Shown here: piece by piece, positions 9,354 through 62,794 of the stretch
How the letters are laid out: the number at the start of each line of letters is the position of its first letter
Position numbering within the stretch: position 1 is the stretch's first letter
Assembly: GCA_031430645.1 (NCBI GenBank)
Contig: JANPBY010000101.1
Coordinates: forward strand, 6,112-70,111
Direction: 5' to 3'
From: Actinomycetes bacterium
GTDB taxonomy: Bacteria; Actinomycetota; Actinomycetes; DATJPE01
Length of the DNA: 64,000 nucleotides
Position numbers and translations under genes: made by a program
The notes under the pieces: model-generated
What the model saw: the letters and a program-made list of their open reading frames with translations, nothing else
Databases searched by the model: none
Told to the model about the DNA's origin: nothing

Positions 9354-10339
9354 CCAAGTCCAGGACCACAGCCGACCACGTGGCCGAGTGGCCGATGTGG
9401 TCGACAACGGTGCGGGTCGTCACACGCGATCCGGGCATGCTCAGGGTCGCCAGCCAAGCCGTCGAGTCCGAGCTCGTGGGCATGGACCGTGCCGCCAGCC
9501 GCTTTCGCGTCGACAGCGAGGTGTGCCGGCTGGCGGCCTCGGGAGGTCGTCCGACGCGAGTCTCTCCCCTGCTGGCAGCGACGTTGCGGGCCGCGTTGCG
9601 AGTTGCCTCAGCGACCGGCGGTGCTGTCGACCCGACTGTCGGAAACGCCTTGGTAGCCGCTGGCTACGACGCCGACTTCTCCGTGATCTCGGCGCGAGCG
9701 CCATCGTCGTACGACCCTCGACCAGCACTAGGCCCTCAACCAGCTCTGGACCCTCAACCAGCTCTGTCACTCCCGATCGAGCTTCAGGTGGCCACCACGT
9801 GGAGGGACATCCACCTGGTGGGCGACGTGGTCACGTTGCCGGACGGTCTGCTGCTGGACCTTGGCGCCACCGGCAAGGCACTCGCGGTCGACCGGGCTGC
9901 CGTACGCGCGTCGATCGCTGCTCAAGGTCCGGTCCTCGTCGCGGTTGGAGGTGACCTTCGCGCCGCAGGGACGTCACGAAGCGAGCCATGGCTCGTCGAA
10001 GTCGCCGAACGCCCAGAGGACGAGGGAGTGGCCTGGGTGCGTGTATCGGACGGCGGGGTGGCCACGTCGACCACTTTGACGCGTCGATGGCGGGCTGGAG
10101 CGGGCTGGGCGCATCACGTATTCAACCCCCGAACCGGTCGGCCGGCTGAGGTTCATTGGAGGACTGCGACTGTCGCTGCGGCGACCTGTGTCGACGCCAA
10201 CGCCGCCAGCACCGCCAGCATCGTCAAGGGACTCGGGGCTGAGGCCTGGCTGCGCTCCGGCCGTCTACCCTCCCGGCTGGTAGACCGCGACGGCGCCGTA
10301 CTGGTCGTTGCGGGTTGGCCGGAGCAGGTGGCGGCGTGA
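9350..10339 (+). CDS. apbE: FAD:protein FMN transferase (ApbE family)
   Basis: 329-aa protein with ApbE-like conserved blocks (…MWSTTVRVV…, …DLGATGKALAVDRAA…, …ATSTTLTRRW…HHVFNPRTGRPA…). The GTG start overlaps the upstream stop. Confidence 0.8.
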   Translation: MTKSRTTADHVAEWPMWSTTVRVVTRDPGMLRVASQAVESELVGMDRAASRFRVDSEVCRLAASGGRPTRVSPLLAATLRAALRVASATGGAVDPTVGNALVAAGYDADFSVISARAPSSYDPRPALGPQPALDPQPALSLPIELQVATTWRDIHLVGDVVTLPDGLLLDLGATGKALAVDRAAVRASIAAQGPVLVAVGGDLRAAGTSRSEPWLVEVAERPEDEGVAWVRVSDGGVATSTTLTRRWRAGAGWAHHVFNPRTGRPAEVHWRTATVAAATCVDANAASTASIVKGLGAEAWLRSGRLPSRLVDRDGAVLVVAGWPEQVAA

Positions 10340-10947
10340 CGCTCCTGCAAGACCCGGCCCTCCTCTGGTACGTCAATCGCGCAGCTGGGCTCGTGCTGCT
10401 CGTGCTCCTGACAACGGCGACCGTGCTCGGAGTGGGCGCGGTCGACCGACGCACGAGGTCCCGCGTGGGACCGGCGGGCGTTCGTCGAACCCGCCCGGTC
10501 GGCCGCTTTCCGGGCTTTGTGCTCCCCGAGCTGCACCGCCGGGTGGCACTGGTTGCCGTAGCTCTGACTTTCCTGCATATCATTCCTGCTGTTCTGGACG
10601 ACTACGTCCCGATCGACTGGCTCGACGTCGTCGTTCCCTTCGCTTCGGACTACCGTCCGTTGTGGCTCGGCTTGGGGACGCTGACCTTCGATGTCTTGGC
10701 GGTTGTCGTGGTCACCGCACTGGTGAGGACGCGGATCGGCCCGGTCTCCTGGAAGGTCATCCACAAATCCGTCTACGTGACCTGGCCGTTGGCGGTCCTT
10801 CACAGCGTGAACACCGGGACCGACACAGGTGGAGTCTGGGGTTGGTTGGTCCTTGGTTGCGTCCTCGCGGTCGTCGCCGCTTGCTTCGCGCGACTGCGGA
10901 GCATGGCGGCCAGTGACCGTGCAGCCCGACGCCCCGTGCTCCGCTGA
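10315..10947 (+). CDS. Ferric-reductase-like transmembrane domain protein (MsrQ/YedZ-like heme-binding membrane component)
   Basis: 210-aa protein with about six TM helices and conserved His in helices (…ALTFLHIIPAVLD…, …WKVIHKSVYVTWPLAVLHSV…). It immediately follows apbE, with possible GTG at 10336 overlapping the apbE TGA. Confidence 0.6.
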   Translation: MAGAGGGVTLLQDPALLWYVNRAAGLVLLVLLTTATVLGVGAVDRRTRSRVGPAGVRRTRPVGRFPGFVLPELHRRVALVAVALTFLHIIPAVLDDYVPIDWLDVVVPFASDYRPLWLGLGTLTFDVLAVVVVTALVRTRIGPVSWKVIHKSVYVTWPLAVLHSVNTGTDTGGVWGWLVLGCVLAVVAACFARLRSMAASDRAARRPVLR

Positions 10948-10954
10948 CCTGTCT

Positions 10955-12451
10955 CTAGTTGGTGGCGGCGAGCGCAACCAACAAGTCAGCTGCCGTTGGA
11001 CTGCGATCGAGCAGGCTCTCAACGTGCGCGCGGGTGCCGCGCAACGGCTCCATCGTGGGTACCCGTTGCAGGGACTCCTGACCGGGAACGTCAAAAATCA
11101 CCGAGTCCCAGGATGCCGCCGCAATGTGCTCGGGATAGCGACGCAGGCACTCCCCACGGAAGTAGGCGCGGGTGTCCTCGGGAGGATCCGTGACCGCCGA
11201 CTGCACCTCGGCGTCGCTCAGCAACCGGTCCATCCGGCCAGCCGCCACGAGTCGGTGATAGAGCCCCTTCTCGGGCCGGACGTCGCTGTATTGCAGATCG
11301 ATGGCATGGAGTTTGGAGGCGTCCCACCCGAGCCCGTCGCGCTCGCGGTAGCCCTGAAGCAGCGACAGCTTGGCCACCCAGTCGAGCTCGCGGGAGCAGC
11401 GCTGGGGGTCATCTGCGAGTCGGTCCACCATCGACTCCCACCGAGAAAGAATGTCCATCGTCTGGGCATCGGCGTCGACTCCATACCGATCCGCAACGAA
11501 CTTGCGGGCCTGCTCGGCATACTCGCCTTGCAGTTGAACAGCGGTGAGCCGCCGGCCAGAGGCCAGGGTGATCTGATGGCGCAGCGTCGGGTCATGGGAG
11601 ACGGCATGCACCTCCGAAACGGGATGCGCGACCGTCAAGCTGTCGCCGAGGAAGCCCGCCTCGATCATCGACAAGACCAAGGACGTGGTCCCCATCTTCA
11701 GATAGGTCGCGACCTCGCTGAGGTTGGCATCTCCAATGATGACGTGCAGCCGCCGGTACTTCGTGGGGTCGGCATGCGGCTCATCGCGGGTGTTGATGAT
11801 CGGCCGCTTCAGGGTGGTCTCGAGCCCGACCTCGACTTCGAAGTAGTCAGCCCGTTGGCTGAGCTGAAACCCGTCGTCCTGCCCTTCCTGGCCCAGCCCG
11901 ACGCGTCCGCTGCCGGCGATCACCTGTCGGCTCACGAAGAACGGCGTGAGCTGCGTGACGATGTCGCTGAACGGCGTGGCCCGGCTCATCAGGTAGTTCT
12001 CGTGGGTGCCGTAGGACGCACCCTTGTTGTCGGTGTTGTTCTTGTAGAGAGTGATCAGCGGATCACCGACTGCAGCCAACGCCCTGCGCGCGGCCTCCGC
12101 CATCACGAGGAGCCCAGCCGCGTCGTAGCGAACGGCATCGCGGGGGTTGGTGACTTCGGGAGATGAGTATTCGGGGTGCGCGTGGTCGACGTACAGCCGC
12201 GCACCGTTGGTCAAGATCACATTGGCGAGGCCGAGGTCTTCGTCGGTGAGCTGACTGTCATCCGCGAGGTCGCGTGCCAGGTCGAACCCGCGCGCATCCC
12301 GCAGTGGGCTCTCCTCGTCGAAGTCCCAGCGGGGCCTGCGGCCGCGTAGGGCGACACCCGCGTAGGCGTTGACGATCTGACTCGAGGCAAGCATCGCGTT
12401 GGCTCCGGGTTGTCCGACGACGGAGATGCCGTACTCGGTCTCGATGCCCAT
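10955..12451 (-). CDS. dop: Pup deamidase/depupylase Dop
   Basis: [12 protein letters not shown]… start region plus the Dop/PafA ligase-fold core ([44 protein letters not shown]). The exact start lies between 12451 and 12469. Confidence 0.9.
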
Positions 12452-54174: not shown

Positions 54175-54714
54175 TCAGCCGCGCGGAACGACAAAGTCAT
54201 CGAGGCTAGCTCCGTGTGGTCCGAGACCTGACCAGGGCCCCGCCACACTGAGAACTGCAAGACCCGACGTCGGGAACTTGGCTGCGGCCAAGGCGGCGCC
54301 GGACTCCGAACGAGGGCCGGCGAGTTCGACCACCAGATCCTGGACCCCTGGGTTGTGGCCCACCAGGAGGACGGTCCCGACATCATCAGGGACTGCGCGA
54401 AGCACCTCGATCAGGGTCCCGACATCGGCGTCGTACACGCGGCCCGAGGACCGTACTTCGGTCGCATTCCCACCGGCTGCCCGCAGGGCGGGCTCCACGG
54501 TCTCCCACGTCTCCTGGGTCCGACGTGCATCTGAGTGAACGACGAGGTCGAGCCGGCCGATGTGCTCCCCCAACCACCGACCCGCAGCCGGCGCGTCCCG
54601 GAGCCCGCGCTTGGCGAGCGGCCGATCCTTGTCGGGCACCCCGGCCGGCCAGTCCGACTTAGCGTGTCGCAAGACGATCAGCCGTCGCTCAGGAGGTTGG
54701 TGGGCAGGAGTCAC
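54175..54714 (-). CDS. Histidine phosphatase family protein (SixA-like)
   Basis: The GTG at 54712-54714 gives VTPAHQPPERRLIVLRHAKSDW… with a later …VGHNPG… block. The 516-aa ORF-track version extends antisense across cphB and is not credible. Confidence 0.65.
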   Translation of the reverse strand: MTPAHQPPERRLIVLRHAKSDWPAGVPDKDRPLAKRGLRDAPAAGRWLGEHIGRLDLVVHSDARRTQETWETVEPALRAAGGNATEVRSSGRVYDADVGTLIEVLRAVPDDVGTVLLVGHNPGVQDLVVELAGPRSESGAALAAAKFPTSGLAVLSVAGPWSGLGPHGASLDDFVVPRG

Positions 54715-54811
54715 GGGTTCATCATGCCGCGCGCAACGGGCCGGGTGTGGCCCGGCCCGAGGAATGGCCCGTGTCTCACCCTCATGGTCGCCGCCGGATA
54801 CGCTGCGCCGA

Positions 54812-55734
54812 TGCCCTCGAGCTCGCTCAGCCTGGTGCCAGCGGGAACTCTCGTCGTCATCGGTGGAGCAGAGGACAAGATCGGCCGCTCGAGAGTCCTG
54901 GCTCGCTTCGTCGAACTCGCCGGCGGGCCCCAGGCCCGAATCGCTGTCTGCGCGACCGCGAGTTCCCTCGGCCCGGAGGTAGCCAGGCTGTACGACACGG
55001 TGTTCCAAGGGCTCGGCGCGGCTGAAGTGGTATCGGTGTCGCCGAGAACCCGCGAGGAAGCTGACGATCCTGGCCTGGCTGCGGTTCTTGGGCAGGTCTC
55101 TGCCGTCTTCTTCAGCGGTGGAAACCAGATGAAGCTGTCCCAGACCATCACAGGCACGGCCTTCGGTGATGCGATCCGGGCGCTGCACCTGGACGGTCGT
55201 ACCGTTGCTGGGACCTCGGCCGGGGCCAGCGTCATGAGCGAGCACATGATTGCCTTCGGCGCTGCCGGCGCGACTCCAAAGAACCGCATCGCCCAACTGG
55301 CTCGTGGTCTCGGCCTGCTCTCCGAGGTCGTCGTCGACCAGCACTTCGATCAGCGCAACCGCCATGGCCGGCTCTTGACCCTCGTGGCGCAATCGCCATC
55401 CCTGCTCGGACTCGGCGTTGACGAGGACACCGCAGCGGTCGTGTCGGGGGGGCGTGTACTCGAGGTGATCGGGCGAGGATCGGTCTTCTTGGTCGACGGC
55501 GGCCGGGCGATCACCAGCGCGGCGAGTGCCAGCCGCAGCCAGCCTTTGTTGGTGTCCGGCGCCATCTTGCACGTGCTCCCGGCTGGTAGCCGCTTCGACC
55601 TTGTGGACCGCCGACTCATGGACGTGGTAGCAGGGACCCACCCCGGCGAGGCCGTAGACCTGGTAGCCACGGCCGCTGACGTACGGCGCGTCGCCGCACG
55701 CCGCGCCAAGCGCAAGACCGATCAAGCGACCTGA
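54812..55734 (+). CDS. cphB: Cyanophycinase (peptidase S51)
   Basis: MPSSSLSLVPAGTLVVIGGAEDK…, the GTSAGASVM nucleophile motif and VVDQHFDQRNRHGRLL are colinear with cyanobacterial CphB (MPLSS…IIGGAEDK…GTSAGAAVM…VVDQHFHNRNRMARLL). Confidence 0.9.
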
Positions 55735-55757
55735 TCGGCTCAGTCCATCGCGAGCAA

Positions 55758-58511
55758 TTGGAGAGAGAGCACCCTGTGACCGAGCGGACTTCCGGCCAAG
55801 CGCAACCCGATCTCCAGATCACCGAGACCCGGGTGTACCGCGGGCCGAACATCTGGTCCTATGACGAGTCGATCCATCTGGTGGTCGATCTGGGCTCCCT
55901 CGAGAACTATCCGACGGACCGCCTCCCGGGTTTTGTGGACGGCCTTCTCGAAACTCTCCCGGGGATTGCCGACCACTCCTGCTCGCGGGGCCGTCGGGGG
56001 GGCTTTCTCGAGCGGCTGCGCGAAGGTACCTGGCTCGGTCACGTCGCCGAGCATGCGGCCCTTCAGCTCCAGCACGAGGCTGGTTTTGACATTCGGAGGG
56101 GTAAGACCCGAGGGGTCCCCGGGCAGCCGGGCCGCTACAACGTGGTCTATGGCTACACCGATGAGCGCGTCGGACTCGCAGCCGGCAGGCTAGCCGTACG
56201 GCTGGTCAATCACCTGGTTCAACCGGATCCGGACTTTGCCTTCGACCACGAGCTCGAGCACTTCTTGCTGGGCGCCGAGCGCACCGCGTTCGGCCCGTCG
56301 ACGCAAGCGATCATCGACGAGGCCGTGGCCCGGGACATCCCATGGCTTCGTGTCAACGAGTACTCCCTCGTCCAACTCGGGCAAGGCGTCCACGCCCAAA
56401 GAATTCGGGCCACGATGACCTCCCGTACCTCGGCCTTGGCCGTCGACATTGCTGGGGACAAAGACCTGACGACCCGACTCTTGGCTGCGGCCGGGCTGCC
56501 GGTGCCGAAGTCCGAGTCTGTCCGTTCAGCTGACCGCGCGGTTGAAGCCGCTCGCCGGATCGGCTACCCGGTGGTGTGCAAACCGCTGGATGGCAATCAC
56601 GGCCGCGGAGTCTGCCTAGACCTGCAGGACGAGGAGGCCGTCCGGGCAGCATTCCCCATCGCCGAGGACCAGTCACGCCGCGGTTGGGTCATCGTCGAGA
56701 GCTTCGTGACTGGCCGCGACTATCGGGTGCTGGTCGTTGGTGGACGCATGGTGGCTCTCGCGGAGCGGGTGCCGGCCCACGTGATTGGCGATGGCACGCG
56801 GACCGTCCGGCAGCTCGTCGACGACACCAATGCAGATCCTCGACGTGGCGTGGGCCACGAAAAAGTCCTCACCCGAATCACGATCGACGACAAAGCCATC
56901 GCGCTCGTACGGGAGCAGGGCCTCGAGATGGAGAGCGTCGTCCCTGAGTCGACCATGGTCAAGCTCACTCTGACGGGCAACATGTCGACAGGCGGAATCT
57001 CGATCGACCGGACCTTTGAGGCGCACCCGGACAACATCGAGATCGCTGAGGAGGCCGCTCGGGTCGTGGGACTCGATGTTGCGGGTATCGACTTCATCTC
57101 CCCCGATATTGCAGAGCCAGTCCGCGAGACCGGGGGCGCGATCTGCGAGGTCAATGCCGCACCCGGCTTTCGTATGCACACCCACCCGACGATCGGTGAG
57201 CCGCAGTACGTCGCCAAGCCGGTCGTCGACCTGTTGTTCCCGCCGGGGTCGCCAAGCCGTATCCCCATCGTCGCCGTCACCGGAACTAACGGGAAGACGA
57301 CTACTTCGCGGATGATCGCTCACATCTTCAAGGGGTTGGGCCGCAAGGTCGGCATGACCTCTACCGACGGGGTCGTCATCGACGAACGACTCGTCATCCG
57401 GGCGGACGCTTCCGGCCCGAAATCGGCAAGAATGGTGCTGCAGAATCCGCGCGTCGACTTCGCGGTCTTCGAAGTAGCCCGAGGGGGAATCCTTCGGGAG
57501 GGCTTGGGCTACCAGCGCAACGACATTGCCGTCGTTCTCAACGTCGCGGCCGACCACCTCGGAATGCGCGGGATCGATACCCTTGAGCAGCTCGCCGAGG
57601 TCAAGTCTGTCGTGGTCGAGGCGGTTCCCCGCGACGGGTTCGCCGTGCTCAACGCGGATGACCCTCTGGTCCGCGCGATGAGACGGAAGGCACCCTCGGG
57701 GCGAGTCGTCTGGTTCTCGATGGCCGAGCCTGGATCCGAGACGATGGAACTCATCGACGACTACTGCCGTCGCGGAGGACGGGCTGTGGTCCTGGAGCGC
57801 GGCGACCTGGGCGAGCGGATCGTCATTCGGCACGGTCGACGATCCATGCCCCTGGCATGGACACACCTCCTGCCCGCCACCTTCGGCGGCAAAGCCCGCT
57901 TCAACGTCGCCAACGCCATGGCGGCGGCGGGGGCAGCCTTTGCAGCCGGCGCGCCGCTTCACGATATCCGGCAAGGGCTGCGCACCTTTACGACGTCGTA
58001 CTACCTCTCCCCGGGGAGACTCAACGAACTCGATGTGAACGGCGTCACGGTGTTCATCGACTACTGCCACAACGCTCACGGAATGCGCGCGCTAGGGGAC
58101 TTCGTCGACCGGTTGGCCGAAGATCGCGATGCCGGACCGGACCTGGAACGACACCGGTGCATCGGGGTTATCGCCACCGCCGGTGACCGCCGTGATGACG
58201 ACATGCGCGAGCTCGGCGGAGTCGCGGCACAGCACTTCGACGCGATCATTGTTCGCGAGGATGCAGCACTTCGCGGGCGCGAACGAGGCGAGACCTCAGA
58301 TCGCGTCGACGAAGGCGTGCGCGCTGCCATGTCCGAGGGCGCCCGCTGCCGGTCGACTGAGATCGTCATCGATGAGCTCGACTCCGTTCGGCATGCACTG
58401 ACGCTGGCCAATCCGGGCGACATCCTGGTGATCTGCGTCGACAAGCACGGAGCCGTTCTCGAAGAACTCGAGCGGCGATCTCACATCGCTCAGCCCGGAG
58501 CACACGGCTGA
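55758..58511 (+). CDS. cphA: Cyanophycin synthetase (full-length N + ATP-grasp G + Mur-ligase M domains)
   Basis: RGPNIWSY…HSCSRGRRGGFLERLREGTWLGHVAEH (N domain); VVCKPLDGNHGRGV…VNAAPGFRMH (ATP-grasp); IVAVTGTNGKTTTSRM…DYCHNAHG (Mur ligase). These are colinear with Synechocystis CphA. Confidence 0.92.
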   Translation: MEREHPVTERTSGQAQPDLQITETRVYRGPNIWSYDESIHLVVDLGSLENYPTDRLPGFVDGLLETLPGIADHSCSRGRRGGFLERLREGTWLGHVAEHAALQLQHEAGFDIRRGKTRGVPGQPGRYNVVYGYTDERVGLAAGRLAVRLVNHLVQPDPDFAFDHELEHFLLGAERTAFGPSTQAIIDEAVARDIPWLRVNEYSLVQLGQGVHAQRIRATMTSRTSALAVDIAGDKDLTTRLLAAAGLPVPKSESVRSADRAVEAARRIGYPVVCKPLDGNHGRGVCLDLQDEEAVRAAFPIAEDQSRRGWVIVESFVTGRDYRVLVVGGRMVALAERVPAHVIGDGTRTVRQLVDDTNADPRRGVGHEKVLTRITIDDKAIALVREQGLEMESVVPESTMVKLTLTGNMSTGGISIDRTFEAHPDNIEIAEEAARVVGLDVAGIDFISPDIAEPVRETGGAICEVNAAPGFRMHTHPTIGEPQYVAKPVVDLLFPPGSPSRIPIVAVTGTNGKTTTSRMIAHIFKGLGRKVGMTSTDGVVIDERLVIRADASGPKSARMVLQNPRVDFAVFEVARGGILREGLGYQRNDIAVVLNVAADHLGMRGIDTLEQLAEVKSVVVEAVPRDGFAVLNADDPLVRAMRRKAPSGRVVWFSMAEPGSETMELIDDYCRRGGRAVVLERGDLGERIVIRHGRRSMPLAWTHLLPATFGGKARFNVANAMAAAGAAFAAGAPLHDIRQGLRTFTTSYYLSPGRLNELDVNGVTVFIDYCHNAHGMRALGDFVDRLAEDRDAGPDLERHRCIGVIATAGDRRDDDMRELGGVAAQHFDAIIVREDAALRGRERGETSDRVDEGVRAAMSEGARCRSTEIVIDELDSVRHALTLANPGDILVICVDKHGAVLEELERRSHIAQPGAHG

Positions 58512-58512
58512 G

Positions 58513-60213
58513 TTATTCGGTTCCACGAGCTGTCCGGACCTCGCTCACACGCCGCTTCAGGGCAAGGGGCAGCAGGGATGCTGCCTGCCGAGCGGCGAGC
58601 CAAGCGAGGGCTTCGGTGCGTTCGCCGTGACACATGAAAGCGATGACGTCTCCTGGCGCCGACCGCTCAACGAGTGCGATCAGGGCCACGACCTCTCCAT
58701 CGGAGGTAGGGAAATCGCTGTGCCCCACTGACTTCGCCCCCTCGTCGAAGAGCGCCTGGACTTCGCCAAGGGTGCGTCCACGGAGGTACATCGGGGAGCG
58801 AACAGAGATGACGTCGTCAGCCTGTTGAGCGGCCAACGCTCCGAGTTGAACCAGATCCTCGTCGCGCCGGTCGCCGGCGCCGGAGAGCGCCAGCCGAACG
58901 TTGGACCCAGGCAAGCGCAGCCCGTCCGCGACACCAAGCAGCGCCTCGAGCCCCTCCGGGTTGTGCGCGAAATCCAGGACGACCAAGACCGAGTCCAGCT
59001 CGAAGACGTTCATCCGGCCCGGGTTGTGCGCAACGTCGGGCACGAAGCTCGCGAGACCTGCCGTGATCGCTGGTCGTGGCAGATTCAGGGCCAACGCCGC
59101 TGCAACGGCGGCCAAAGCATTGGCGATGTTGTGGGGCGACAGGCCGGCGAGGGTGACCGGGATGTCCGCGATGGACATCAGATGGTCAGGGTCAGCCGTG
59201 CGATCTCCCAGGACCACCAGATCACCGTCGAGTACGGTCACGGCCCGGCCCCCCTCGTTGAGGGTCTGGCGAATGGCCGGACTGTCGGGTGAGAGGGCGA
59301 AGACCCAGGTTCGGGCGCGGATTCCTGACCGCATGGCGAAGACCCGTGGGTCTTCACCATTGAGAACCACCCACCCCTGCGGTCGGGTCACCCTGGTGAC
59401 CACCGCCTTGACCTCAGCGAGCTGGTCGACGGTGTCGATTCCTTGGAGACCCAGATGGTCGGCCGAAACATTCGTCACGATGGCAACGTCGTTGGCAGCC
59501 ACTCCCATCCCCCTCAAGAGCAGCCCTCCCCGCGCGGTCTCGAGCACGGCAACATCGACGGGCTGGGCCAAGACCAGACGGGCACCGCCCGGACCCGACC
59601 AGTCCCCTGCTTCGATAAGTTGACCGTCGACGTAGACCCCATCGGTGCTCGTCCATCCCGTCGAGCGACCCGCCGTCATGCACAGGTGCGCGAGGATCCT
59701 CGTGGTCGTCGTCTTCCCATTGGTGCCCGTGATGGACACCACAGGAATCCTTGGTTGCGGCAAGTCCGGAGGGAGACCTGGTTCAGCGGCGAGCACGTTG
59801 TGTCCTGCCTCGGCGATGAGCTCATCCATCGGCCGCTCCGCCAGGTCATCAAGCACACCGACCACGGCATGAGCCAAGGCTTCTGCCCGGCCGCGGCGAC
59901 GCCAGGGATAGGCAAGAATGAGTTGGTCGATGTCCCTGCCGGGGCGGGCCCGGACAGCCAGCCGATTCGTTCCCGACGCAGCGGCCACCTGGCGGGTGAT
60001 GTGGACGAGCAGGCGAAGAGCGAAACGTTGACGCTGACCCGAATGTGGCTCGCCGGGCCGCGACCCGGACAGCCCGGCCGAACGGGCAATCCCAAGAACG
60101 GTCTCCTCGGCAAGTCCCACAAGGACCGTGGCGTCGAGGGTCAGTTTGACTGCCGGCCGGGAGACATACAGATTCGGGCCGTCGAGGACTCTCAGCTCGA
60201 CTAGCGCAGTCAT
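58513..60213 (-). CDS. Truncated cyanophycin-synthetase-like protein (CphA N domain fused directly to Mur-ligase M domain; ATP-grasp G domain absent)
   Basis: The ATG at 60211-60213 gives MTALVELRVLDGPNLYVSRPAVKLTLD… (CphA N-domain-like), followed after about 160 aa by IPVVSITGTNGKTTTTRILAHL…TDGVYV…LETARGG…DHLG…DFAHNPEG. No ATP-grasp motifs lie between them. Confidence 0.8.
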   Translation of the reverse strand: MTALVELRVLDGPNLYVSRPAVKLTLDATVLVGLAEETVLGIARSAGLSGSRPGEPHSGQRQRFALRLLVHITRQVAAASGTNRLAVRARPGRDIDQLILAYPWRRRGRAEALAHAVVGVLDDLAERPMDELIAEAGHNVLAAEPGLPPDLPQPRIPVVSITGTNGKTTTTRILAHLCMTAGRSTGWTSTDGVYVDGQLIEAGDWSGPGGARLVLAQPVDVAVLETARGGLLLRGMGVAANDVAIVTNVSADHLGLQGIDTVDQLAEVKAVVTRVTRPQGWVVLNGEDPRVFAMRSGIRARTWVFALSPDSPAIRQTLNEGGRAVTVLDGDLVVLGDRTADPDHLMSIADIPVTLAGLSPHNIANALAAVAAALALNLPRPAITAGLASFVPDVAHNPGRMNVFELDSVLVVLDFAHNPEGLEALLGVADGLRLPGSNVRLALSGAGDRRDEDLVQLGALAAQQADDVISVRSPMYLRGRTLGEVQALFDEGAKSVGHSDFPTSDGEVVALIALVERSAPGDVIAFMCHGERTEALAWLAARQAASLLPLALKRRVSEVRTARGTE

Positions 60214-60244: not shown

Positions 60245-61012
60245 TCAGGCACCCATGGCGTGCACCCCTCCGTCAACGTGGACGATCTCGCCGGTCGTCT
60301 TCGGGAACCAGTCGGACAGCAAGGCCACACATCCCTGAGCAGCGGGAGTGGGGTCGTCGAGGTCCCAGCCAATCGGGGCGCGAGACGCCCACACTGCTTC
60401 GAAGTCGCTGAATCCGGGAATCGAGCGGGCTGCCATGGTCTTGATCGGTCCCGCCGCCACCAAGTTCACCCGGATACCCTGGTCCCCGAGGTCACGAGCG
60501 AGATAGCGCGACGTCGACTCGAAGGCGGCCTTGGCGACACCCATCCAGTCGTACTTCGGCCAAGCAACGGTCGCATCAAAGGTCAGCCCGACGACCGAAC
60601 TGCCTGAGGACATCATGGGCAGGCAGGCCATGGTGAGGGCCTTGAGCGAGAACGCGGACACGTGAACCGCGGTGGCGACATCGGGCCAGGTGGTCTTCAA
60701 GAAGTTGCCGCCGAGCGCAGACTCCGGTGCGAAGCCGATCGAGTGCAGTACGCCGTCGATGCCGTCCATGTGCTCGCCCACGCGCCCCGGGAGGCCGGCG
60801 AGGTCTTCTTCGCTCGTGACATCGAGTTCGATCACCGGCGCAGGCGTAGGGAGTCGCCGGGCGATGCGTTGCACGAGCGACATCCGGCCATAGCCCGTCA
60901 GAACCACCTGTGCGCCCTGCTCCTGGGCCAGGCGTGCGACATGGAAAGCGATGGAAGCATCGGTCAGAACGCCTGTGACCAAGACGCGCTTGCCTTCGAG
61001 GATTCCGGCCAT
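60245..61012 (-). CDS. fabI: Enoyl-ACP reductase (NADH), FabI/InhA type
   Basis: MAGILEGKRVLVTGVLTDASIAFHVARLAQEQGAQVVLTG… and the later Y/K active-site region. It is arranged with fabG as in the mabA-inhA operon. Confidence 0.88.
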   Translation of the reverse strand: MAGILEGKRVLVTGVLTDASIAFHVARLAQEQGAQVVLTGYGRMSLVQRIARRLPTPAPVIELDVTSEEDLAGLPGRVGEHMDGIDGVLHSIGFAPESALGGNFLKTTWPDVATAVHVSAFSLKALTMACLPMMSSGSSVVGLTFDATVAWPKYDWMGVAKAAFESTSRYLARDLGDQGIRVNLVAAGPIKTMAARSIPGFSDFEAVWASRAPIGWDLDDPTPAAQGCVALLSDWFPKTTGEIVHVDGGVHAMGA

Positions 61013-61015
61013 CTG

Positions 61016-61720
61016 CTAGTGCCCCATTCCTAGGCCGCCGTCTACGGGAACGACAGCACCGCTGACATAACCAGCCTCGTCCGACGCGAGGAAGGCCACG
61101 ACGGCCGCCACCTCCGCCGGCGATGCATATCGACCGAGCGGAACCTGAGCGAGGATCACCGAGCGTTGGGCGTCGCTCAAAGCCGCCGTCATGTCTGTAT
61201 CGACGAAGCCTGGAGCCACCACATTGGCCGTGATGCTTCGGCTCCCAAGCTCGCGGGTCAACGAGCGAGCGAAACCCACGAGGCCCGCCTTGGACGCGGC
61301 GTAGTTCGCCTGCCCAGCCGAGCCCAGGAGGCCGACCACCGAAGAAACAAAGATCAACCGACCCCAGCGAGCCCGAAGCATGGTTTTGCTCGCTCGACGC
61401 GTCACCCTGAATGCTCCGGTCAGGTTGGTGTCGAGGATCGCCGCGAAGTCGTCCTCGGACATCCGCAAGAGCAAGGTGTCGCGAGTGATGCCGGCATTGG
61501 CGACCAGGATCTCGACCGGCCCAACTTCGGCTTCGATGCGGTCGAAGGCTGCATCGACCGACGCCTGGTCGGTCACATCGCAGGCCACGGCGGTGAGCCC
61601 GTGCGGGGCGTCTCCCGACCGAGAGGTCACCACCACCGTGTGACCATCCTCCGTCAGCCTGAGCGCGATCGCCAGACCGATGCCTCGGTTGCCTCCGGTG
61701 ACCAGCGCTACGCGACCCAC
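61016..61720 (-). CDS. fabG: 3-oxoacyl-ACP reductase FabG (MabA-like)
   Basis: The GTG at 61718-61720 has a GGAGG Shine-Dalgarno. ALVTGGNRGIGLAIA…, NAG…, YAASKAG and the C-terminal PVDGGLGMGH nearly match mycobacterial MabA. The 432-aa ORF-track version carries a non-coding extension. Confidence 0.85.
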   Translation of the reverse strand: MGRVALVTGGNRGIGLAIALRLTEDGHTVVVTSRSGDAPHGLTAVACDVTDQASVDAAFDRIEAEVGPVEILVANAGITRDTLLLRMSEDDFAAILDTNLTGAFRVTRRASKTMLRARWGRLIFVSSVVGLLGSAGQANYAASKAGLVGFARSLTRELGSRSITANVVAPGFVDTDMTAALSDAQRSVILAQVPLGRYASPAEVAAVVAFLASDEAGYVSGAVVPVDGGLGMGH

Positions 61721-61807
61721 CTGACCTCCAGTGCTCGAGGACGCGTTCGACCTTCGGACGCGCCGAGTCGACGCTAGCGCGTCCGCCGCCCCCGTTAGGG
61801 TCCAGGG

Positions 61808-62794
61808 GTGCGCGCCATCCAGATCCACCGCTTCGGCGGCCCCGAAGTACTCGAGCTCGTCGAGCTTCCAGATCCGATTCCCGAACCGGGTTCCCTGCTG
61901 CTCGAGGTGACGACAGCGGGAGTCAACTTTGCCGACACTCACCAGATCGAGAACTCCTATCTCGCGGCCCAGACATTGCCTTTGGTGCCGGGAGCGGAGG
62001 TCGTGGGGCGTACGGCTGACGGCCGACGAGTGGTTGCCCTGGTGTCCGGCGGGGGCTACGCCGAGAAGGCTGTTGTTCATCCGGCTCTGTGCTTCGACGT
62101 CCCTGACACGGTCACGGACGGAGCGGCACTGGCCGTAGTCCTCCAGGGCACGACTGCGTGGCACCTCCTGCGCACGAGCGCCCATCTGATGGCCGGGGAG
62201 ACCGTGGTCGTCCACGCCGGAGCCGGCGGTGTAGGCACCCTCGCCGTTCAGCTTGCGAAGGCGTGGGGCGCCGGCCGGGTCATCGCCACGGCCTCGACGC
62301 AGGAGAAACGCCAACTAACCCTCGACCTCGGCGCCGACGTGGCCGTGTCGCCGGACGCTGAGGGTCTGGCCGCCCGCTTGCGCGAGGCAAACGAGGGCGC
62401 ACCTGTCGACGTTGTCCTGGAGATGACCGGCGGAGCGGTCTTCGACGAGAGCCTTCGGGCACTTGCGCCCTTTGGGCGACTGGTGACCTACGGCATGGCC
62501 TCGAGGCAGCCTGCGAAGCCTGTCACCAGCGGTGAACTGATGGCGAAGTCACGAGCGGTGATCGGTTTCTGGCTGGCGCACTGTTTCACTCGACCGGCCC
62601 TGCTGCACACCGCCATGGACGACCTCCTGGCTCGGTTGGCCGCCGGGGAACTTCGCGCCGTCATCGGCGGGGTCTGCCCCCTAGCAGAGGTCCGGCGCGC
62701 CCATGAGGACCTGCTCGCCCGCAGGACCACCGGGAAGCTCCTCCTCAACCCAACATCCGGCTCCACCAGCGTCGACTTTCCGGGAGCAGTATGA
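61808..62794 (+). CDS. NADPH:quinone oxidoreductase / zinc-binding alcohol dehydrogenase (MDR) family
   Basis: MRAIQIHRFGGPEVLELVELPDP… and the Rossmann block VVVHAGAGGVGTLAVQLAKAWGA. Confidence 0.8.
   Translation: MRAIQIHRFGGPEVLELVELPDPIPEPGSLLLEVTTAGVNFADTHQIENSYLAAQTLPLVPGAEVVGRTADGRRVVALVSGGGYAEKAVVHPALCFDVPDTVTDGAALAVVLQGTTAWHLLRTSAHLMAGETVVVHAGAGGVGTLAVQLAKAWGAGRVIATASTQEKRQLTLDLGADVAVSPDAEGLAARLREANEGAPVDVVLEMTGGAVFDESLRALAPFGRLVTYGMASRQPAKPVTSGELMAKSRAVIGFWLAHCFTRPALLHTAMDDLLARLAAGELRAVIGGVCPLAEVRRAHEDLLARRTTGKLLLNPTSGSTSVDFPGAV

Follow-up and report, generated by a model that had tools for sequence, protein, structure and literature searches.

A cyanophycin synthetase paralogue without the G domain, encoded beside cphA in Actinomycetota: a candidate stand-alone side-chain ligase

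Introduction

In current accounts, a single enzyme makes cyanophycin; this is CphA1 or, for re-polymerisation, CphA2. In CphA1, the N domain and the core of the M domain (Mcore) together make the polymer-binding groove, and the ATP-grasp G domain extends the poly-Asp backbone. The N domain carries the C-x19-HxxEH motif, which is the primer-generating metallopeptidase site (Sharon et al., PMC9262961). Adjacent gene pairs labelled cphA1 and cphA2 are present in the Betaproteobacteria Sideroxydans and Gallionella (PMC5178258). Here, we analysed the cyanophycin locus in a 64,000-nucleotide (nt) stretch of contig JANPBY010000101.1 from an Actinomycetes bacterium, referred to below as the window. 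Beside a complete cphA, this locus contains a second synthetase-like gene, the NM gene, whose product (the NM protein) consists of an N-terminal domain (N′), Mcore, and Mlid, the G domain being absent. In the literature searched, which included a 2023 survey of gene clusters for cyanophycin (PMC10206079), no description of a G-less CphA or of an N+M synthetase was found. The NM gene is intact, and we propose, with a probability of about 55%, that it encodes a stand-alone, ATP-dependent side-chain ligase, which would act on cyanophycin in trans with CphA1 and would be the reciprocal of CphA2.

Results

Architecture of the NM Protein

The NM gene and its parts are located in the window as follows (aa, amino acids):

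58513..60213, minus strand: NM gene, a G-less cyanophycin-synthetase paralogue of 566 aa (ATG at 60213, TAA at 58513-58515)
59785..60213, minus strand: N′ domain, residues 1-143, of CphA N type but diverged and without the Cx19HxxEH metallopeptidase motif
59038..59751, minus strand: Mcore, residues ~155-392, the central ATPase module of Mur ligases (PF08245 at residues 161-373)
59707..59730, minus strand: P-loop TGTNGKTT, residues 162-169 (K167/T168 equal TeCphA1 K499/T500)
59449..59460, minus strand: DHLG motif, residues 252-255 (D252/H253 equal SuCphA1 D585/H586)
58516..59037, minus strand: Mlid, the C-terminal module of Mur ligases, with the C-terminal tail, residues 393-566 (PF02875 at residues 399-527)
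58774..58800, minus strand: putative specificity loop RSPMYLRGR, residues 472-480, the equivalent of MurE DDNPR in an alignment with E. coli MurE residues 354-491

The border between Mcore and Mlid was set by residue 723 of TeCphA1, which corresponds to NM residue 392. The initial annotation had described the product as a Mur-ligase M domain behind a CphA N domain, without an ATP-grasp domain, and had proposed a domain scan and a search for hidden ATP-grasp motifs as checks. Both came out in its favour as regards the G domain. The Pfam scan returned only Mur_ligase_M (PF08245, E = 1.9e-19) and Mur_ligase_C (PF02875, E = 9.2e-9), both exceeding their gathering scores, and revealed no ATP-grasp or RimK match in the 566-aa product at E < 0.1. 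Together with the TGTNGKTT and DHLG motifs, these two matches confirm that the M domain is retained. The TIGR02068 model aligned to the NM protein over model positions 475-848 of 862 only, and the protein scored below the CphA cut-offs of both TIGR02068 (381 bits vs. 850) and NF010623 (349 vs. 877). A tblastn search of the 64-kb window with the G domain of cphA found cphA itself as the sole locus and no remnant in any frame. The distance between N′ and the P-loop is ~15 residues, which leaves no room for ATP-grasp, as a G domain occupies ~330 residues. A G domain hidden in the NM gene was thus ruled out by the Pfam scan, the TIGR02068 span, and the tblastn search. Without this domain, the NM protein is predicted to be unable to polymerise alone.

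In a BLASTP comparison, residues 147-495 of the NM protein aligned with residues 494-856 of the neighbouring CphA at 43% identity. The phmmer E-value was 1e-79 against TeCphA1 and 1e-12 to 1e-17 against MurE, and the scores with the NCBIfam models of murC, murD, murE, and murF were far under their cut-offs (e.g., 94 vs. 257 for murE). The AlphaFold2 model, built with 48 homologues, reached a predicted local distance difference test score (pLDDT) of 90.5 and a predicted template modelling score of 0.86. When this model was compared with the PDB using Foldseek, CphA1 structures ranked first (E-values from 7e-36 to 1e-33 over ~420 columns), and MurE came next (1e-20); matches to MurC, MurD, and Mpl structures were also obtained.

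Catalytic Residues of the M Domain

The M domains of 87 non-identical NM proteins were aligned with those of 66 CphA1 enzymes, of which 62 were actinobacterial neighbours and four had solved structures. The initial annotation had suggested this kind of alignment as a check on the ATP-binding residues, and these proved to be conserved. In both sets, 79 columns were at least 95% conserved and identical. They include the NM/CphA1 pairs N165/N497, K167/K499, T168/T500, T190/T522, E225/E558, D252/D585, H253/H586, R400/R731, and H417/H748. The P-loop TGTNGKTT was invariant in all 87 NM and all 66 CphA1 sequences, and the D252/H253 pair of the DHLG motif reached a conservation of at least 95% in each family. 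In TeCphA1, residues N497, K499, T500, T522, E558, R731, and H748 provide the adenine, phosphate, and Mg contacts; the K499A substitution impairs activity, T500 chelates Mg, and R731 and H748 touch the ATP phosphates (PMC9427784). The D585A/H586A double mutation inactivates the M domain of SuCphA1 (PMC9262961). All residues of the CphA1 M domain to which ATP binding, Mg binding, or a critical role in activity has been ascribed are thus at least 95% conserved among the 87 NM members. This catalytic set argues strongly against an inactive scaffold and disfavours the regulatory, non-catalytic partner that had been listed among the possible roles. In our best reading of the alignment, the NM protein is predicted to be catalytically competent.

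The N′ Domain

The statement of the initial annotation that the N domain of CphA is kept held for the fold but not for the sequence or the peptidase site. A structure comparison showed that N′ shares the fold of the CphA1 N domain, at an identity of only ~10-20%. Since plain sequence searches were too weak, the assignment relies on structure and profile comparison: BLASTP between the N-termini of the NM protein and the neighbouring CphA was marginal (E = 0.07), and N′ gave no match to Pfam PF18921. Modelled alone, residues 1-155 reached a pLDDT of 92.9. A profile-profile comparison of N′ with actinobacterial CphA1 N domains gave a probability of 86% (E = 5.5e-6, 124 columns), and its alignment contained a 9-residue gap in N′ exactly over the CphA1 metal site GTWLGHVAEH. 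The HxxEH motif is absent anywhere in the NM protein; the partner CphA1 retains the full Cx19HxxEH motif (C75...HVAEH). N′ resembles the N domain of CphA2 more than that of CphA1. It is a strongly diverged, peptidase-less CphA-type N domain, like that of CphA2.

The 150-aa N′ sequence was also compared by phmmer with 1.84 billion cluster representatives. This search gave 212 matches, none of them of CphA1 length; the full-length ones were 549-585 aa, with the addition of one 745-aa fusion with a tetratricopeptide repeat (TPR). In the latter protein (P0147, L094 6727-8964), a C-terminal TPR_5 domain is fused to N′ and M, and the gene stands in the context fabG-fabI / NM / cphA-cphB. The fusion hints at protein-protein interaction.

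Specificity Loop and Charge

The DNPR motif of Mur ligases such as MurE helps to select the incoming amino acid. In E. coli MurE (1e8c), the DDNPR sequence was confirmed as an exact match at residues 412-416. At the positions aligned with D412 and D413, the CphA1 enzymes have E-D (64/66 and 66/66, respectively). The NM family has in the same loop a Lys (81/87), a variable residue, and then a Tyr two positions on (86/87). The Arg aligned with MurE R416 (R478 of the NM protein) is invariant in CphA1, the NM family, and MurE. The loop of the window protein, R-S-P-M-Y-L-R-G-R, is a variant common to its closest relatives. As the DNPR-equivalent loop differs from that of CphA1, the amino acid added may not be Arg, or it may be recognised differently. 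The analogy with MurE offers a lead in the same direction, namely that the NM family would use a different nucleophile or would recognise it in a different way.

The NM family also differs from its partners in the distribution of charge. The mean net charge of N′ is +6.8 vs. +1.4 for the N domain of the partner CphA1, and that of the M domain is −13.9 vs. −1.8. This split between N′ and M may be related to the kind of substrate bound.

Extent and Age of the NM Family

When 5.8 billion proteins were searched, more than 100 full-length homologues of the NM protein were found (~560 aa, 95-100% coverage, 53-80% identity), which are labelled "Mur ligase family protein" by NCBI and "cyanophycin synthetase" by JGI. 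A protein identical to the NM product (P0001) is present in public data. The family alignment showed strong conservation over the whole length, in both modules. With the use of N′-specific patterns and one genome per species, at least 583 stretches were confirmed by tblastn, all of them from Actinomycetota; the hosts among the matches listed were Nocardioides, including cultured species, as well as Nocardioidaceae, Propionibacteriales, Jiangellales, and others. The N+M architecture, which had been called unusual, is thus not rare and is standard in Nocardioidaceae and related Actinomycetota. Members of the family can be recognised by a length of ~550-590 aa, the N-terminus LxELRxLxGPNxY, the TGTNGKTT motif directly after N′, the loop H-K-x-x-Y-L-R-G-R, and the position of the gene beside cphA. 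The window protein fits this signature, with the loop variant given above.

The M domain of the NM family is 36-41% identical to those of actinobacterial, cyanobacterial, and gammaproteobacterial CphA1, whereas the CphA1 M domains of these groups are 42-46% identical to one another. This points to an old separate branch and not to a recent truncation. Judged by these identities, the divergence of NM and CphA1 is estimated to be older than the split between phyla. The ages are based on group-wise identities, and no other Mur ligase gene usable as a root was present in any locus examined.

Four metagenome-assembled loci (L003, L015, L024, and L060) have cphA, and sometimes NM, split across reading frames. 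These are probably assembly frameshifts and not pseudogenes.

Genomic Context and Linkage to cphA

The genes around the NM gene in the window are as follows:

54811..55734, plus strand: cphB, cyanophycinase, 307 aa from ATG (TIGR02069 E = 4.9e-71, Peptidase_S51)
55758..58511, plus strand: cphA, the partner gene, coding for CphA1 of 917 aa (TIGR02068 1147 bits, cut-off 850)
55812-56252, 56253-57242, and 57243-58508, plus strand: approximate N, G, and M domains of cphA, containing C75-x19-HVAEH
60245..61012, minus strand: fabI/inhA-like enoyl-ACP reductase, the gene immediately preceding NM on this strand (gap of 31 nt)
61016..61720, minus strand: fabG-like ketoacyl reductase, start uncertain, the open reading frame (ORF) being readable to 62314 (adh_short Pfam families on homologous genes)

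The genes named in the initial annotation were all located; sixA and serB flank the locus at one end, fabI and fabG at the opposite end. The cphA gene is a canonical three-domain synthetase, as had been stated; its product matched Cyanophycin_syn (PF18921), several ATP-grasp families, Mur_ligase_M, and Mur_ligase_C. The cphB gene was present as well, with its start one base off (54811, not 54812); its ORF spans 54535-55734, and the ATG at 54811 is the likely start. The convergent arrangement of NM and cphA was also borne out, the stop codons (TGA 58509-58511 and TAA 58513-58515) being 1 nt apart. The start codon of the NM gene, 31 nt past the fabI stop, is backed by the family alignment. The mechanical ORF extends upstream to 60372, and the stretch before the ATG consists of the final part of fabI.

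Among related loci, fabI was found directly upstream of the NM gene in 80 of 84. A complete convergent cphA was present in 61 of the 64 loci whose downstream sequence extended for 8 kb or more. The spacer between NM and cphA ranged from 41 to 6807 bp across 68 loci, which makes this junction an insertion hotspot.

The linkage was also found among distant members of the family, in which N′ is 34-38% identical to that of the window protein. For P0232, which clusters with an Antricoccus sp. protein, and for P0241, the NM gene is convergent to and adjoins a full cphA, with unrelated flanks and no fabI. For P0170, P0202, and P0239, it lies on the same strand as cphA and directly downstream of it:

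L089, 8001-9683, same strand as cphA: NM gene, 25-nt gap
L090, 8001-9650, same strand as cphA: NM gene, 4-nt gap
L092, 539-2269, same strand as cphA: NM gene, 13-nt gap

These cphA-then-NM tandems look operonic. The linkage to cphA outlasts changes of both flanks and orientation; of the evidence at hand, this speaks most strongly for a shared function.

Some further features of these loci were recorded. The NM gene is followed by a Peptidase_M20 gene in both L089 and L090 (plus Amidohydro_1 in L090), and cphB is nearby; the Peptidase_M20 and Amidohydro_1 genes could be cluster-specific dipeptidases. In L002 and L003, two genes (581 aa and 184 aa; 9695-11994) without a Pfam match lie between NM and cphA. 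In the cultured Nocardioides sp. Soil805 (L080, 11700-20372), ferrochelatase and inositol monophosphatase genes follow downstream of NM. This order recalls the mycobacterial fabG1-inhA-hemZ, a conserved string into which the cphAB block may have been inserted. The convergent spacing of 1 nt is unique to the window genome, as the other loci have at least 41 bp. No terminator-like structure was found between the cphA and NM stops (58509-58515), so with such spacing transcripts from both sides would have to overlap. The scan for promoters and terminators gave 0 promoter-like sites and 4 terminator-like sites vs. 3.6 expected. The fabG-like ORF (61016-62314) can be read as 432 aa from TTG and is annotated so in the public contig L004; as its homologues are ~230-250 aa long, this annotation probably includes too much sequence at the N-terminus.

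Discussion

The NM protein combines N′ with a complete M domain. By analogy with CphA1, it would keep the complete unit that binds the substrate during side-chain addition. Three steps can be envisaged. N′ and Mcore would bind a chain of cyanophycin with undecorated Asp at its end or within it. The M active site would then spend ATP to convert the β-carboxylate of Asp into an acyl-phosphate, and an amino acid, perhaps other than Arg, would be ligated to the activated Asp. The substrate, the reaction, the co-operation with CphA1, and the altered specificity are inferred by us; the gene linkage and the diverged specificity loop, both read from sequence, back these functional proposals. A further possibility, which we regard as tentative and clearly weaker than the proposal itself, is that the NM protein constitutes a third functional class which, together with CphA1, installs a non-Arg residue or re-decorates bare Asp. 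The "cyanophycin" of Actinobacteria would in that case be a two-enzyme product of mixed composition. The N+M form may also resemble the ancestor into which ATP-grasp was inserted to give CphA1.

Several observations weigh against a side-chain ligase working with CphA1. CphA1 alone makes cyanophycin elsewhere, and the M domain of the partner CphA1 is complete, which leaves no obvious need for a second M activity. The specificity argument rests on the MurE analogy. Much of the 61/64 figure could be inherited synteny in one clade, fabI and serB being kept in the same loci. In the window, the NM gene starts 31 nt past fabI and is probably transcribed with fabG-fabI. The Nocardioidaceae NM gene, which likewise follows fabI after 31 nt and faces cphA from the opposite strand, is probably not co-transcribed with cphBA. 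Three loci (L052, L077, and L080) carry an intact NM gene with all motifs and no cphA within ~8.7 kb. These three loci, along with the same-strand position 31 nt past fabI in 80 of 84 loci and the ferrochelatase of L080, placed as in fabG1-inhA-hemZ, would suit an active Mur-type ligase with another substrate, e.g., a polyanionic polymer, a small metabolite with a β- or γ-carboxyl group, or a cell-envelope component, the proximity to cphA being historical or metabolic. The diverged specificity loop and the odd charge (~+7 for N′ and ~−14 for M vs. +1 and −2 in CphA1) are consistent with such an enzyme as well. We consider it rather unlikely, because both modules of the NM protein are nearest to cyanophycin synthetases, and in at least five distant lineages, three of them with tight tandems, the gene is still paired with cphA although flanks and orientation have changed.

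The linkage to cphA would also fit an enzyme that supplies primers or dipeptides, i.e., β-Asp-X or short primers of the (β-Asp-Arg)n type made from free Asp or short peptides. Its M site is complete, but the N-domain peptidase site, the source of primers in most CphA1s (PMC9262961), is lost. The partner CphA1 has the full Cx19HxxEH motif and should need no external primers, the M site of CphA1 needs a polymer ending in undecorated Asp (PMC9427784), and the retained polymer-binding domain of N type argues for a polymeric substrate, which makes this role improbable. Slightly less probable still is a structural or regulatory role, in which the NM protein would bind CphA1 or cyanophycin without catalysing a reaction. 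The loss of the N′ peptidase site and the example of CphA2, in which domains of the CphA family persist as inactive scaffolds (PMC10273328), speak for it. However, 87 sequences down to ~46% identity show at least 95% conservation of the Lys in the P-loop, the residues that bind Mg, the D252/H253 pair, and the Mlid Arg and His, which would be surprising in an inactive domain. The inactive M domain of CphA2 is truncated (PMC10273328), while the M domain of the NM protein is full-length. As for a frameshifted or truncated cphA pseudogene or a mis-called ORF, the gene adjoins a full cphA, is 43% identical to its M domain, and has a mechanical ORF that continues upstream. The same ~560-aa architecture with the same start and an invariant catalytic set is found end to end in hundreds of genomes, the G domain has left no remnant in any frame, the sequence upstream of the ATG belongs to fabI, and the divergence appears to predate the split of the phyla. 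A pseudogene, which the initial annotation had named as one outcome that would overturn its view, was therefore excluded, its probability being negligible.

If the NM protein is indeed a side-chain ligase acting on cyanophycin, side-chain addition would be separable from backbone synthesis in nature. It might then explain, or allow control of, the polymer composition (Arg, Lys, or other residues), which is the main lever on material properties in the biotechnological production of cyanophycin. The protein would also serve as a small, soluble model of the polymer-binding groove formed by N and Mcore and would bear on the evolutionary assembly of the three-domain synthetase. As the family is large and includes cultured Nocardioides strains, the question is directly testable.

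Comparison with Known Systems

CphA1 (PDB 7LG5, 7WAC, 7LGM, 7LGN) is similar to the NM protein in its homologous M domain (37-43% identity), with the reported ATP, Mg, and catalytic residues kept, and in the fold of the N-terminal domain; the NM protein is, moreover, encoded beside a bona fide CphA1. Unlike the NM protein, CphA1 has the G domain, the Cx19HxxEH motif, and the E-D pair in the DNPR-equivalent loop. Lacking the G domain and scoring under the curated cut-offs, the NM protein does not belong to the CphA1 class. CphA2 (PDB 7TA5) is likewise a reduced member of the superfamily, with one ligase activity and a non-catalytic N domain (PMC10273328). However, CphA2 keeps an active G domain, and its M domain is truncated and inactive (PMC10273328), whereas the NM protein shows the reverse, a full M domain and no G domain. 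CphA2 has been described as cyanobacterial, and the NM records are, among the matches listed, all from Actinomycetota.

Mur ligases, such as E. coli MurE (PDB 1E8C), share with the NM protein the PF08245 and PF02875 modules, the P-loop, the Mg ligands, the Arg of DNPR, and the organisation into three domains. They differ in having a UDP-binding N-terminal domain, in the place of which the NM protein has a CphA-type N domain. The D-D/N part of the MurE DNPR motif is not kept in the NM protein, and the similarity is much weaker than that to CphA1. The cphA/cphA′ pairs of Betaproteobacteria resemble the NM locus in that two genes of the CphA family lie side by side, which implies co-operation. 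The second copies of these pairs (cphA′) are, as far as is known, full-length three-domain proteins, whereas the NM protein is without the entire G domain and represents an old branch of its own. By the class tests, the NM protein falls only within the generic Mur-ligase superfamily, and it is best filed as a distinct N′+M family within the cyanophycin-synthetase lineage.

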